NCBI GenBank assembly: GCA_016840095.1
Contig: JAEOSZ010000063.1
Span: forward strand, 1 to 23,680
From: Candidatus Heimdallarchaeota archaeon
GTDB lineage: Archaea > Asgardarchaeota > Heimdallarchaeia > Heimdallarchaeales > Heimdallarchaeaceae
Reading direction: 5' to 3'
DNA: 23,680 bases
Shown here: piece by piece, positions 3,352-7,928 of the stretch
Layout: each line of letters starts with the position of its first letter
How positions within the stretch are numbered: position 1 is the first letter of the stretch
Notes under the pieces: model-generated
Database searches by the model: none
What the model saw: the letters and a program-made list of their open reading frames with translations, nothing else
What the model was told of the DNA's origin: nothing
Program-made: the position numbers and the translations under genes

Positions 3352-3403
3352 AATTTTCTATTTATCTTCTTATTTTCTTTTTCAATCTCTTTTATTTATT
3401 TTT
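3352..3403 (+). terminator. Probable oligo-T terminator region between convergent operons
   Basis: Pyrimidine/T-run tract (ttttctatttatcttcttattttctttttc...) directly after the rpl12 stop. Confidence 0.45.
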
Positions 3404-3730
3404 TAAAAAAACATTAAATGCATCAATAATATTATCACATTTTTCCAAAGCGTGATAAATTTCTAAATCAGAAAATTCAGTCTCTATATCAGAAAACTCA
3501 GTTTCTTGAACTGAACCTGAACTGAGAGAAGCTGTTCTTGACCTTCTAATTTCTCCTCTGCCATCAATTGAGATAATTAAAGTATGGTCGTCTGCATGCA
3601 TCAGTACAAAGTTAAACAATTGGCTGTCTCTTAATTCCTCCAATTGCTTTCTTTCTATTTTGCATTCAAGCATCTTTCCACAATGATCACAGCTGAATGT
3701 TTTGTGGATGTACCTTTCATTTTCTCTCAT
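3392..3730 (-). CDS. Small putative Zn-binding protein (CxxC...H-x3-H), last gene of the KaiC/GTPase operon
   Basis: FSCDHCG...FVLMHADDHTLIISIDGRGEIRR. ATG 3730 has GAGGT upstream and avoids overlapping the GTPase; the alternative start is 3784. Confidence 0.65.
   Translation of the reverse strand: MRENERYIHKTFSCDHCGKMLECKIERKQLEELRDSQLFNFVLMHADDHTLIISIDGRGEIRRSRTASLSSGSVQETEFSDIETEFSDLEIYHALEKCDNIIDAFNVFLKNK
3462..3503. repeat. 21-bp tandem duplication within the CDS (ETEFSDI/ETEFSDL)
   Basis: tctaaatcagaaaattcagtc / tctatatcagaaaactcagtt, 18 of 21 identical. Confidence 0.7.
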
Positions 3731-3752
3731 TTGCTTCTCTACCTCTTTTTGA

Positions 3753-4358
3753 TTAGAAACTCTGATATTTTGAAACGAGTTCATCCGCTAGACTTTGTTC
3801 CTTGTTTATTATTCTATCAACTATGTACTCAAAAGGTTCAGAAACATTACCTGATAGAAGACCGCTAACTAGGAAATGCTTTTTGATTCCATAATTCTTC
3901 ATGAAGTCATGAATGTCTTCAATAGATACTTCTGCGTCCTCTAAATCTAGTTTATTTCCAACTAAAACTTCAGGAACTTTTGGGTAAAAGTGATTGGCTA
4001 AGTAATTACGAGTAAGATCAACAAACTCATTTAGATATGCTAAAGTTTCAATATCTGTGATATCATAGACGTACATTACACCTTTAACTCCACGCAAAAA
4101 AACGTCAATCATGAATCGAAATTGCTTTTGACCTGCAAAATCCCAAATTTGTAAGGTGATTGTTCGACCTTGATGAACTATGCGTTTTACAGTTATATCT
4201 ACGCCCTTTGTCATTGATATTTGATTAGGATCATTAAGTTCTCCGGAATAGCTTTTAGATATCGTAGTTTTGCCCACAGAACCTAATCCTAACACAGCAA
4301 CTTTCAGTATATTGTCATTCTTTGAATTTTGAGGGAGTACTGTATTCATCATAATCAT
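3753..4358 (-). CDS. Ras-superfamily (Rab-like) small GTPase
   Basis: G1 GLGSVGKT, G2 Thr (MTKG), G3 LQIWDFAGQ, G4 GNKLD, degenerate G5 (VSGL); no C-terminal CaaX/CC. Confidence 0.92.
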   Translation of the reverse strand: MIMMNTVLPQNSKNDNILKVAVLGLGSVGKTTISKSYSGELNDPNQISMTKGVDITVKRIVHQGRTITLQIWDFAGQKQFRFMIDVFLRGVKGVMYVYDITDIETLAYLNEFVDLTRNYLANHFYPKVPEVLVGNKLDLEDAEVSIEDIHDFMKNYGIKKHFLVSGLLSGNVSEPFEYIVDRIINKEQSLADELVSKYQSF

Positions 4359-4373
4359 ATCCTAAAATAATAT

Positions 4374-5717
4374 TTAAAACACCACATTTTTTTGTGGTGA
4401 ATTATTGTACCCTGCTACTAATCCATGTACTGAGACAGCTGCATAGACTGGTTTGCTTTTGATTATTGAAAATTCTCCTCCTGAATATAGTGTCATAAAA
4501 GGCACATCAGGTCCTAAAGCCTTTTTGATCATTTTGTTTTCTTCTTCGATTTTATCTCCAGCAATAAGTAATCTATTACTGCAGTTAATAAACAGACCAA
4601 AAAGCGGATGATCAACTCCTTGGACAAGAGAACTAGCACAATCATATGCTGATTCTTGAACTCCGATACCAGATTGAGTGCAAAACTCTGCAATCTTGTC
4701 ACTTTCATCTAGAATTTCTTCAGGTATTGTAGCAATTACTCCTTTCAGAATTGGATGACATACAGATACAAAAGGAAGATTTCCTTGGTTTTCTGATTTC
4801 AATGTAGAAAGATATAGAAGTGAAGCATAAGCCATATTTTGAAAAGCTTCTTCATAGAGTTCCTTAGAAATCCCTATTTGATTAAGAAATTCTTCTTGTG
4901 CTGGTTTATCGTTTATTTCATGTAAATAACTACTGCTCTTTAGTCCCTTAGATAATTCAAAGCTTTGATTTTTCCTTGATTGATCAAAAGTCCAATTATG
5001 TTCAAAGTTAATTGTGTTTGAAGAGAATACTGTTCCTACCAAGGCGTTTTGAAATACATTATCTCCTTGAAACTGATAACAAGAAAGCATATCCAAATCA
5101 ATTGTAGCTCCTCCTAGGGTGTTTTCTACACCGTTTTCAAGTAACTTCAGAAGTATTTTGTAAGCAAATGATGTTACACCATGTCCGTTCTTAGCCATAC
5201 TACGGTTAATTAGTTTACCAACTTGGTTGAACATTCCTCTGAATTTATGAGCAAATATAGTATCCATCGCTTTCATATCTTCAAAAGCTCCTGGCGGAAA
5301 GAAAGGACCTGGAGTTAGAAAGAATCCTGTCTTGAATTTGTTTTGGTCATCTTTAAAGAGGTTTACAAGTTTGTCTGATCCTTTTTCAGGATTAAGCCGT
5401 ACATTTGAATAGGATACAGGTGTATGAACATCTAGTTCTGATGACTTAATAGCCATTGCAGAACAACCTTGAGTAGTAGGCATCTCATCTGATGTAGCTA
5501 CAGCTGGAAAAGTTCCTCCAATTATGTTCTCTGTTCCACTTTCTTCTCTGATTTTGGATACAGCTCTTTCATACTCTTTCTTTTCGCGGTAGTTTGGTGT
5601 ATACGCTACAAGTACAACGTCAGGAGTACCATTAATATCACCAATCACATCATTGATGATTTCCTTAGTTGTTATGTGGATTGATCTGTTGCTAGCTGTT
5701 CTTGTGGCAATTTGCAT
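4374..5717 (-). CDS. Stand-alone FIST (FIST_N + FIST_C) sensory-domain protein
   Basis: PDVVLVAYT, IIGGT, LGGAT, LHEINDKPA, GLFINCSNRLL and PFMTLYSGGEF match FIST_N/FIST_C motifs (EIN-x-x-PA; C-x-x-R; GE). Confidence 0.8.
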   Translation of the reverse strand: MQIATRTASNRSIHITTKEIINDVIGDINGTPDVVLVAYTPNYREKKEYERAVSKIREESGTENIIGGTFPAVATSDEMPTTQGCSAMAIKSSELDVHTPVSYSNVRLNPEKGSDKLVNLFKDDQNKFKTGFFLTPGPFFPPGAFEDMKAMDTIFAHKFRGMFNQVGKLINRSMAKNGHGVTSFAYKILLKLLENGVENTLGGATIDLDMLSCYQFQGDNVFQNALVGTVFSSNTINFEHNWTFDQSRKNQSFELSKGLKSSSYLHEINDKPAQEEFLNQIGISKELYEEAFQNMAYASLLYLSTLKSENQGNLPFVSVCHPILKGVIATIPEEILDESDKIAEFCTQSGIGVQESAYDCASSLVQGVDHPLFGLFINCSNRLLIAGDKIEEENKMIKKALGPDVPFMTLYSGGEFSIIKSKPVYAAVSVHGLVAGYNNSPQKNVVF

Positions 5718-5727
5718 AAAATGACCC

Positions 5728-6087
5728 TCACAGATAATTTGAAATTAAGAGCGCCTTTCTCTTAGATTCTATAGATAACAAACTCAGGTTTGCATTCTTA
5801 CTTGCAATAGTTGTTAGAATTGAAATACTATTTACAACATAGAATATTACACAGAATTCATTCAGTTCATAGGTTACTTTGTTGAGGTTATTTGATTTCA
5901 TCTCTAAGGAGACTTTGTCAACATTTGCTTTACACCACTGAATTGTTCTCAATAACTTATGTGAATATTCTTCTTTAAATGATGAATCCACTACATCTCC
6001 ATCAATTCTGAAGAGCATTGCAGCTTCAACCTCATCTAAGTGAGTTAAATCCTTTAGTTCAGAACCAATTCCTTGGTTATAATTCAT
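5728..6087 (-). CDS. Roadblock/LC7 (MglB/LAMTOR-like) domain protein
   Basis: 119 aa; LKDL...VEAAMLFRIDGDVVDSS helix/beta-hairpin pattern, central helix, three strands and NLSLL final helix. Start overlaps the KaiC stop (ATGA). Confidence 0.75.
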   Translation of the reverse strand: MNYNQGIGSELKDLTHLDEVEAAMLFRIDGDVVDSSFKEEYSHKLLRTIQWCKANVDKVSLEMKSNNLNKVTYELNEFCVIFYVVNSISILTTIASKNANLSLLSIESKRKALLISNYL

Positions 6088-7013
6088 TTTCTTACCTCTT
6101 GCAATACTTGTTTATTTGTTAATACTTCTACGAACTCTATGTTCTGTGAACTATCTCTCTCTCTTTCACCAAGAAGATTTTTAGCAATTTGAGCTATCAC
6201 TCTTTTCTTTGGATCTTTATCCTTAGAGAGTTCTTTCACCCTTTTCATCAATTCTTGGTATCTTATATCTTCAACAACTGGGTTGATAACAGTATTCTGA
6301 ACTGAACTTGTATCTATAACAAGTCCTGGTCCCTCTACGAAATTAAGAGGATATATTCCTTCATGATGAGGAGTTTTTCGAGATTTAACAACTTTACAAG
6401 TTCTATTGTACTTTCCACCTAAACCTAAGTTCTGGATATGTATTACGCTATCAGATAGGTAGATAGGAACTCTAGTTTCTTTAGCACCAATATCTGTTTG
6501 ACCAAAAGCATTAGGTTCTTCGACTGTTTGTAAAACAGTACCGAGTGAACTCAAATGATGGTAAATCTTTGTTAGAACTTTTCTTTGTTCTTTCTCTGAA
6601 GGAAATTCCCACAGTATTGGAGTAAGAGGATCCAAAATAATTCTTGTATGTTTCACATTTCTATGTTTCAGCTTTTGTGCTAAAGCTGGAAGAATGTTTG
6701 TCATAAACTCTACAATCTTTTCACTTTCAACTAAATGAATCAAATCTTCAGCATCATTTGTCATATTACGAATGTTAATTCCTAATGATTCAGCTTCTCC
6801 AATCAATTTAGATGGAGTTTCTTCAAAAGACAAATAAAGGGTATGATCACCTTCTAAAAGCCCTTGATACAAATATGCTAAGGCAAAGGTAGTTTTTCCA
6901 GTTCCGCTACTACCTACTATTGAATTAATAGAATTCTTGATTATTCCTCCGTTCATAAGAACATCAAGACCTTCTATCCCAGAAGATATTCTCTCATGGT
7001 TAATCATAGACAT
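6084..7013 (-). CDS. KaiC/RAD55-like RecA-superfamily ATPase (single domain plus C-terminal helical extension)
   Basis: RISSGIEGLDVLMNGG, Walker A GSSGTGKT, YLSFEE catalytic Glu pair, Walker B RIILD, VVKSR K-x-R finger. Confidence 0.88.
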   Translation of the reverse strand: MSMINHERISSGIEGLDVLMNGGIIKNSINSIVGSSGTGKTTFALAYLYQGLLEGDHTLYLSFEETPSKLIGEAESLGINIRNMTNDAEDLIHLVESEKIVEFMTNILPALAQKLKHRNVKHTRIILDPLTPILWEFPSEKEQRKVLTKIYHHLSSLGTVLQTVEEPNAFGQTDIGAKETRVPIYLSDSVIHIQNLGLGGKYNRTCKVVKSRKTPHHEGIYPLNFVEGPGLVIDTSSVQNTVINPVVEDIRYQELMKRVKELSKDKDPKKRVIAQIAKNLLGERERDSSQNIEFVEVLTNKQVLQEVRK

Positions 7014-7169
7014 CTATAGTTATACATTAACAAGCTAAATAAACTCCACAATTTCTAAATTTGGTCTAAATCCAGTTCCTTTAGGTTACAAACTTCTAAA
7101 TTAGAATTTAGAATTAAACACAAAGAGTAACATTTTAGTAAAGATACAAAAATACCCATCTCGATAATA

Positions 7170-7928
7170 ATGAGTTCATTTTTACAAAAGATAAAGGATT
7201 TGTTTGCTTCCGAAGAAAAAAAATTCTCTATGATGTTATTTGAAAAATTGGAAACAACTAATTTTATCAATATTAGGAAGATGGAATCAAAGCTTTCTTT
7301 GGAGAAGCGATACGTAACTATTACCAGTTTACTATCAAATAAAAAACTATCAGGTGTTTTTCTTCCTGAAAAGTCCCATTTCTTTACTATTTCTGAAGGG
7401 GAACTATCAGAAATAAGAGATTCTTTGAAGAAACAAGGAATGATAGAAATTTCAATAATCAAGAATCATTGGGCTGTTACTGACAAAACATTAGTACCTT
7501 TGTTAAATCATCTAGAAAAAGGAATCATTGGTGACAAAAGATATTATACAACCACATTTCTGCAAAACACCATTAAATCTTCTCTAGCAAGGACAGATGA
7601 ATATGAAATCAAAGAGTTTGAGAAAAAATTCGGTATAGAGGTAGAGGTCTTTAACCAGCTTATTACAAACATGATAGAAGAACAAGAAATTAATGGTATT
7701 TTGAAGAATAACTCAATATATCTTAGTTCAGAAACTTTTGAAAATGGCCTTTTTGAGTTTCTAGAAGACAAACTAGATAGTGATAATGAACTAACATTTG
7801 ATGAGATATCTTCTGAACTAGGAGTTCCATCGTCGAATATAGAACGCTTTCTTGTGAGCTATGTTGATAAAAATCCTGGGAGTTTAGTCATTTATCCTTT
7901 AGAGAAAAAGATAATTTTTAAAGGATGA
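7170..7928 (+). CDS. Tandem winged-helix (PCI-like) protein resembling DDRGK1/UFL1 WH repeats
   Basis: Repeated 'I..L.....l.G.......F/Y.....l.....l...g.i.i.el' units; residues ~51-97 parallel the DDRGK1 C-terminal WH as remembered. Confidence 0.55.
   Translation: MSSFLQKIKDLFASEEKKFSMMLFEKLETTNFINIRKMESKLSLEKRYVTITSLLSNKKLSGVFLPEKSHFFTISEGELSEIRDSLKKQGMIEISIIKNHWAVTDKTLVPLLNHLEKGIIGDKRYYTTTFLQNTIKSSLARTDEYEIKEFEKKFGIEVEVFNQLITNMIEEQEINGILKNNSIYLSSETFENGLFEFLEDKLDSDNELTFDEISSELGVPSSNIERFLVSYVDKNPGSLVIYPLEKKIIFKG

Follow-up and report, generated by a model that had tools for sequence, protein, structure and literature searches.

The 23,680-nucleotide stretch of Candidatus Heimdallarchaeota archaeon DNA analyzed here (the window; contig JAEOSZ010000063.1 of assembly GCA_016840095.1) carries adjacent genes for a KaiC-like ATPase, a roadblock protein, a FIST protein, a Rab-like GTPase, and a small Cys2-His2 protein. 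We assign a probability of about 0.5 to the reading that these five genes form one operon encoding a cytoplasmic switch module, in which an ATP- and ligand-dependent roadblock platform would control the Rab-like switch. This reading is favored because of the tight gene spacing, the conserved linkage of the genes, the fold of the roadblock protein, which resembles that of the GTPase-activating protein (GAP) MglB, the invariant catalytic motifs of the KaiC-like ATPase and the GTPase, the adjacency of Cys2-His2 and GTPase genes, and the precedent of the actinobacterial conservons. The source genome (G000), in which the window is contig C43, belongs to the Heimdall group, measures 3.44 Mb, and is 89% complete; among named relatives, Heimdallarchaeota AB_125 is the closest to it.

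The ORF list and the sequence place five co-directional minus-strand open reading frames (ORFs) of 309, 119, 447, 201, and 112 codons at 7013-3392. The KaiC and roadblock genes share a 4-nucleotide (nt) ATGA overlap, and the following junctions are gaps of 10, 15, and 22 nt. An earlier sequence-only reading of this DNA had given the same coordinates, overlap, and gaps, which proved correct when the sequence was read again. The Shine-Dalgarno-like motifs that it reported were found as GAGGT-type motifs 6 to 13 nt ahead of the starts of the roadblock, FIST, and Cys2-His2 genes. Its start at 3730 for the small protein is preferred to a longer ORF from 3784: the latter would run 32 nt into the GTPase gene, and orthologs do not keep the extension. 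A TATA-like TTTATTTA lies at 7043-7036, ∼27 nt ahead of the KaiC ATG as read from the sequence, and the intergenic region 7014-7169 that contains it is the likely promoter of the operon.

The operon was compared across three lineages, the Heimdallarchaeaceae (f1), a Hodarchaeales-type family (f5; labeled Hodarchaeota or Hodarchaeales by NCBI), and a family of a different class (f32). The five-gene order with similar spacing is found in 19 congeneric genomes and the order recurs in four other Heimdallarchaeaceae genera, so that all five genera sampled keep it; the closed genomes of Ca. Heimdallarchaeum aukensis and endolithica carry it as well. Identity across these genera falls to 43% for FIST and 45% for the small protein, and the gene overlap and gaps of 10 to 24 nt are preserved in the orthologous loci of the family. 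The order in f5 is GTPase, KaiC, roadblock, FIST, and MFS transporter, as detected by tblastn at five of six loci; at the sixth (G055), a roadblock gene upstream of FIST was found by profile search. In f32 the order is KaiC, roadblock, FIST, and MFS, and the GTPase gene is missing. The KaiC-roadblock-FIST core in f5 and f32 is 22 to 45% identical to that of the window and has unlike flanks.

The f5 KaiC and roadblock proteins have the window copies as their best hits in the source genome, and when 400 Asgard genomes were searched, only f1, f5, f32, and one probably misbinned contig gave roadblock matches at E ≤ 1e−29, all remaining Asgard roadblock matches being at E ≥ 1e−15. Therefore, we conclude from these comparisons that the KaiC-roadblock-FIST triad is an orthologous, selected unit in three Heimdall-group lineages. 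The exceptional contig (G077:C96, L097) is a 6.8-kb piece in the bin of another family in which the operon shows identities of the genus level (KaiC, 77%; FIST, 56%); being probably misbinned, it was not counted as a further lineage. The earlier proposal of a single functional unit thus holds insofar as the genes form a selected unit and are not chance neighbors, the order recurring across genera and the triad across lineages. It had suggested a survey of neighborhood conservation as a check, and this gave a divided answer: the five-gene order is kept in the Heimdallarchaeaceae, but beyond them only the triad persists, in f32 without the GTPase.

The GTPase matches PF00071 (E = 1.8e−29, 102.8 bits), and the best 60 PDB matches listed for it are Rab proteins, Ypt1, Ypt7, and Sec4. 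Its G1 to G5 motifs are complete and include the catalytic Gln, and GxGSVGKT, T50, WDFAGQ, and GNKxD are invariant in 13 orthologs. The C terminus reads KYQSF and the tail contains no Cys, so there is no prenylation motif. It is one of about 40 to 44 Ras-superfamily genes in the source genome. Reciprocal best-hit comparison does not pair the operon GTPases of f1 and f5: one ranks 5th of the 20 matches listed, and the other is low among 28 matches in the f5 genome G057, far behind the top match. Their genes also stand at opposite ends of the operon. Because of these two observations, Rab-like GTPase paralogs were probably recruited twice, in f1 and in f5; rapid divergence may also account for the pattern.

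KaiC proteins are ATP-driven autophosphorylating hubs. The KaiC-like ATPase of the window is a single RecA-superfamily domain (core residues 10 to 233) with a C-terminal tail of ∼75 residues. It matches PF06745 (E = 9.5e−36, 123.7 bits), and its best solved relatives are the CI domain of cyanobacterial KaiC. The Walker A residues G37-x-G39-K40, E64, Walker B R124...D128-P-L-T-P, and R204 do not vary among 12 orthologs from the three lineages, and because of this conservation the ATPase is probably catalytically active. The tail is present in f1, different in f32, and absent in f5, where KaiC has 248 amino acids (aa). The NCBIfam archaeal KaiC models match the window protein below their cutoffs. 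A bona fide circadian KaiC was rejected, since the window protein has one domain in 309 aa versus the two tandem domains (CI and CII) of the ∼500-aa circadian protein, and it scores far below the cutoffs of the NCBIfam circadian models. Clustering of KaiC paralogs with GTPase genes in the source genome was also considered and dropped, as a stricter KaiC profile leaves the window copy and one other within 6 kb; the neighbors of the KaiC paralog on contig C158 are APH-type kinase genes and not roadblock genes.

The second gene product had no match in the local Pfam copy at E ≤ 0.1, PF03259 included, and was assigned by structure prediction. Its AlphaFold2 (AF2) model has a predicted local distance difference test (pLDDT) score of 90.9, and Foldseek aligned it with MglB, MglC, and solved Asgard roadblocks at template modeling (TM) scores of 0.75 to 0.80 (E = 1e−7); LAMTOR subunits were also listed, with MglB and MglC scoring equal to or above them. 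The profile of the protein matches PDB 7f8m (E = 0.003). On the basis of the model, the protein has a roadblock/LC7 fold, which runs alpha-beta-beta-alpha-beta-beta-beta-alpha, and it is probably dimeric. Precomputed annotation assigns its orthologs to PF27410.1 (“AF0774”), with only one also assigned to PF03259. The nearest Atlas cluster is mostly from Methanobacteriota, and a literature search for AF0774 returned only unrelated accession strings. Roadblock proteins are classic partners of small GTPases.

The FIST protein scores 31.1 bits against PF08495 (cutoff, 23.2), and its orthologs carry both N and C domains in precomputed annotation; judged from these sequences, the window protein is a FIST protein with both domains. 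No other FIST gene was found in the source genome, and a profile search against PDB sequences yielded no solved relatives. FIST domains were reportedly proposed as small-ligand sensors by Borziak and Zhulin in 2007. An Altiarchaeota FIST locus (L141) was set aside, as no KaiC or roadblock gene stands beside FIST there. FIST homologs also occur in Loki-type Asgard families (L125-L137; e.g., L129:3050-9571) in a different conserved co-directional cluster, which runs from a ∼139-aa and a ∼330-aa protein of unknown family through a gelsolin-like protein of ∼170 aa and a FIST protein of ∼438 aa to LuxE acyl-protein synthetase and LuxC acyl-CoA reductase.

The small protein comprises an N-terminal Cys2-His2 beta-hairpin domain (residues 7 to 68), a predicted disordered linker (71 to 90), and a C-terminal helix. 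C14, C17, H45, D48, H49, D56, and G59 are invariant and R62 is nearly so; alignment with relatives gives the family signature C-x2-C, 27 to 48 residues, H-x2-D-H, x6, and D-x2-G-x2-R. In the AF2 model (pLDDT, 72) both Cys/His pairs sit at beta-hairpin turns, in a zinc-ribbon-like arrangement. No Pfam family matched the protein, and comparison of the model with solved folds gave no convincing match (best Foldseek E value, 0.37; best Z in VIA-align wide, 3.4). An identity with ArvC/OapC (PF09845) was rejected (hhalign probability, 5.6%; no Pfam match), as was an ArfGAP zinc finger, there being no ArfGap match and the residues forming a C2H2 set with 27 to 48 residues between the pairs and not a C4 set. 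A separate ArvC/OapC homolog is encoded at G000:C122:92813-93115 and in most Heimdallarchaeaceae, away from the operon. The linker holds a 7-residue tandem duplication, ETEFSDI/ETEFSDL, encoded on the minus strand at window positions 3464-3505 and absent from all orthologs. Thus, of the gene identities first suggested, the KaiC-like ATPase, the roadblock protein (by predicted structure), the FIST protein, and the Rab-like GTPase stood, whereas the “Zn protein” has no known family.

The Cys2-His2 family counts 158 representatives in 1.84 billion proteins, yet it is found in 198 of 400 Asgard genomes, and from its sequence the small protein founds an Asgard-wide domain family. In sister families the domain heads proteins of 220 to 310 aa, some encoded right after Arf-like GTPase genes and some fused to a GTPase. 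Linkage was sampled at 49 Cys2-His2 loci outside f1, orthologs included, with ∼3 kb of flank each (less at contig ends) and with the source genome as background. Four loci are fused to a GTPase domain and eight more lie within 100 nt of a GTPase gene (together 12/49, against a background of 1.9%); a GTPase within 2 kb is found at 18/49, the 12 included, against 6.4%. Because the sampled loci include orthologs, this enrichment is indicative and not a formal test.

The fusions with Arf-like GTPases are at L066:4148-5017, L175, L176, and L192, and the genes directly after a small-GTPase gene are at L067, L069, L074, L162, L163, L181, L191, and L197. Most long forms have an unassigned C-terminal domain of ∼170 aa; its identification as a degenerate GTPase was rejected (hhalign probability, 0.6%). 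Genomes of f5 encode a standalone Cys2-His2 protein of 105 to 135 aa (e.g., G057:C1:2783352-2783573) at a conserved distance of 11 to 15 kb from the GTPase-KaiC-roadblock-FIST-MFS operon, with no GTPase gene within 3 kb. Two loci pair GTPase genes with a metabolic enzyme: a Ras-like GTPase gene lies directly 5′ of the gamma, delta, and alpha genes of pyruvate:ferredoxin oxidoreductase (POR) in the source genome (G000:C30, L144:4134-6955), and in G032 (L066:5110-6507) the POR beta gene adjoins a Cys2-His2-Arf fusion.

The literature searched does not describe a KaiC-roadblock-FIST-GTPase-Cys2-His2 gene set, and papers that cover KaiC, roadblock, GTPase, and archaea together draw no link among them. 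The claim that no characterized system has this composition therefore stands for that literature, but it overlooked the conservons, which are characterized and follow a comparable logic (PMC4316618). Conservons (CvnA-CvnD and the mycobacterial mfp operon) are operons that combine an ATP-using, autophosphorylating protein, an MglB-type roadblock, a small protein, and a Ras-superfamily GTPase, and their ATP-dependent kinase, roadblock protein, and small GTPase interact in a manner dependent on kinase and GTPase activity (PMC4316618). Unlike conservons, the window operon includes a FIST gene, its five products all appear soluble, its ATPase is of the KaiC/RecA type and not a histidine kinase, and its GTPase is Rab-like with DxxGQ. 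None of the five window proteins had a Pfam match to HATPase or DUF742, the domains of CvnA and CvnC.

The MglA/MglB pair of Myxococcus xanthus and Thermus thermophilus likewise has a roadblock-fold protein encoded with a small GTPase, and the window model superposes on MglB with a TM score of ∼0.8. In the window, by contrast, KaiC is the gene with which the roadblock gene is coupled, and a FIST gene separates it from the GTPase gene. The nearest solved relatives of the GTPase (Rab, Ypt, and Sec4) and its canonical G3 motif WDFAGQ point away from MglA. What the locus has in common with archaeal KaiC-like hubs and ArlH is a KaiC-like ATPase of one domain whose gene lies with those of putative input and adaptor proteins. 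Makarova, Galperin, and Koonin reportedly described archaeal KaiC-like ATPases as “signaling hubs” in 2017. Finally, the ArvA-ArvB-ArvC operon of Haloferax volcanii encodes a small GTPase with a Zn-ribbon protein proposed as a GAP (PMC10927574); in contrast, the window Cys2-His2 domain is unrelated to ArvC/OapC, and ArvA is Arf-like whereas the window GTPase is Rab-like.

In the module that we propose, a small ligand would be bound by FIST, and ligand-bound FIST would alter the ATPase or autophosphorylation state of a KaiC hexamer. The state of KaiC would then set how the roadblock platform engages the Rab-like GTPase, whether as a regulator of the GAP type or of the guanine nucleotide exchange factor (GEF) type, or as a scaffold. 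The Cys2-His2 protein may partner this GTPase specifically, whether as an effector or as a GAP-like factor that possibly acts via the conserved R62. The direction from FIST through KaiC and roadblock to the GTPase is suggested by what these families do elsewhere, and all physical contacts, the signal direction, the ligand, and the output are inferred.

Several observations weigh against this reading. Because the f32 triad has no GTPase gene and an MFS transporter gene follows FIST in f5 and f32, the GTPase may be an accessory rather than the output. The FIST_C score of the window protein is 26.2 bits, below the Pfam threshold (cutoff, 28.5), and metal binding by the small protein is predicted from its four invariant Cys and His residues. 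No GTPase gene is found in the ∼3-kb flanks of 31 of the 49 Cys2-His2 loci, and these loci are not phylogenetically independent. The same f32 and MFS arrangements would fit two modules on one transcript, in which the triad is directed at something else, for instance the MFS transporter or a metabolic step, next to an unrelated pair of GTPase and Cys2-His2 genes. A GTPase-then-Cys2-His2 pair does stand alone in other families, with Arf-like GTPases. Against this, two lineages have a Rab-like GTPase added to the triad, each at its own position and from its own paralog; roadblock proteins are typically found as small-GTPase partners, and none of the five genera departs from the five-gene order. 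On balance we consider two separate modules doubtful, if well worth keeping in mind.

A more far-reaching version of the favored model would make the Cys2-His2 domain an unrecognized Asgard-wide regulator of small GTPases (a GAP or an effector) and the KaiC-roadblock-FIST triad a platform that, gated by ATP and ligand, controls the nucleotide state of the Rab-like GTPase; we regard this as unlikely. Amino acid sensing of the Rag/Ragulator type, homologous or directly ancestral to the eukaryotic pathway, is suggested by the LAMTOR subunits among the Foldseek matches, by the closeness of the lineage to eukaryotes, and by the small-ligand sensing proposed for FIST, and is nonetheless very unlikely. 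A Rag GTPase combines a G domain with a C-terminal roadblock domain and forms a heterodimer, whereas the window protein is a 201-aa Rab-like G domain alone that scores 26.9 bits against Gtr1/RagA versus 102.8 bits against Ras, and MglB and MglC match the roadblock model at least as well as the LAMTORs do. Eukaryotic Ragulator has no KaiC or FIST, and Asgard archaea have separate Rag-like GTPases (PMC10933270). The likeness to Rag/Ragulator nutrient sensing drawn in the sequence-only reading is therefore conceptual only.

Inherited gene order alone, with no functional coupling, would agree with the conservation of flanking genes within the genus. However, the ribosomal-protein genes downstream are kept within the genus and lost beyond it while the cluster stays intact, and the triad recurs in other classes amid entirely different flanks at the low identities given above, the overlap and short gaps being preserved; we judge this explanation highly improbable. 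An antivirus defense system or mobile-element cargo is scarcely credible, as a weak PADLOC match of KaiC to mad8 (24.7 bits, P-loop region only) is set against no PADLOC match for the other four proteins and against an operon that is single copy, vertically inherited, and stably sited on the chromosome beside ribosomal protein genes.

Table 1. Positions in the window of the five operon genes and the adjoining region
Feature	Position	Strand	Remarks
KaiC-like ATPase	7013-6084	-	309 aa
Roadblock-like protein	6087-5728	-	119 aa; start overlaps KaiC stop (ATGA)
FIST protein	5717-4374	-	447 aa; gap 10 nt
Rab-like GTPase	4358-3753	-	201 aa; gap 15 nt
Small Cys2-His2 protein	3730-3392	-	112 aa; gap 22 nt
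Divergent intergenic region 5′ of KaiC	7014-7169	.	Candidate operon promoter, read from sequence
UFL1-like tandem winged-helix protein	7170-7928	+	PF09743, E = 1.5e−8

The statement that the operon has no helix-turn-helix output needs qualification, since its conserved divergent neighbor encodes a tandem winged-helix protein (UFL1-like; Table 1). In four genera this upstream neighbor, kept where the downstream flank is lost, adjoins KaiC, though in L064 it faces the other way; it is missing beside the f5 and f32 clusters. It may regulate the operon or may be no more than a syntenic neighbor.

Asgard genomes encode dozens of Ras-superfamily GTPases. A structural study of Asgard GTPases and roadblocks observed that the GTPase genes as a rule do not share operons with roadblock or longin genes (PMC10933270), so that regulators are hard to assign. 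The operon described here is an exception to this rule that is conserved in the Heimdallarchaeaceae and in a Hodarchaeales-type family, and it names likely partners for one of the ∼40 GTPases of this genome. It ties KaiC-type ATPases to small-GTPase signaling, points to a new family of Cys2-His2 domains, repeatedly seen alongside small GTPases, and offers five expressible, testable proteins for the study of how an archaeal Rab-like switch is regulated. If the Cys2-His2 domain does prove to be a GTPase regulator and the triad a gated platform, the operon would represent a prokaryotic way of placing GTPase switching under metabolite control, in the organisms most closely related to eukaryotes.

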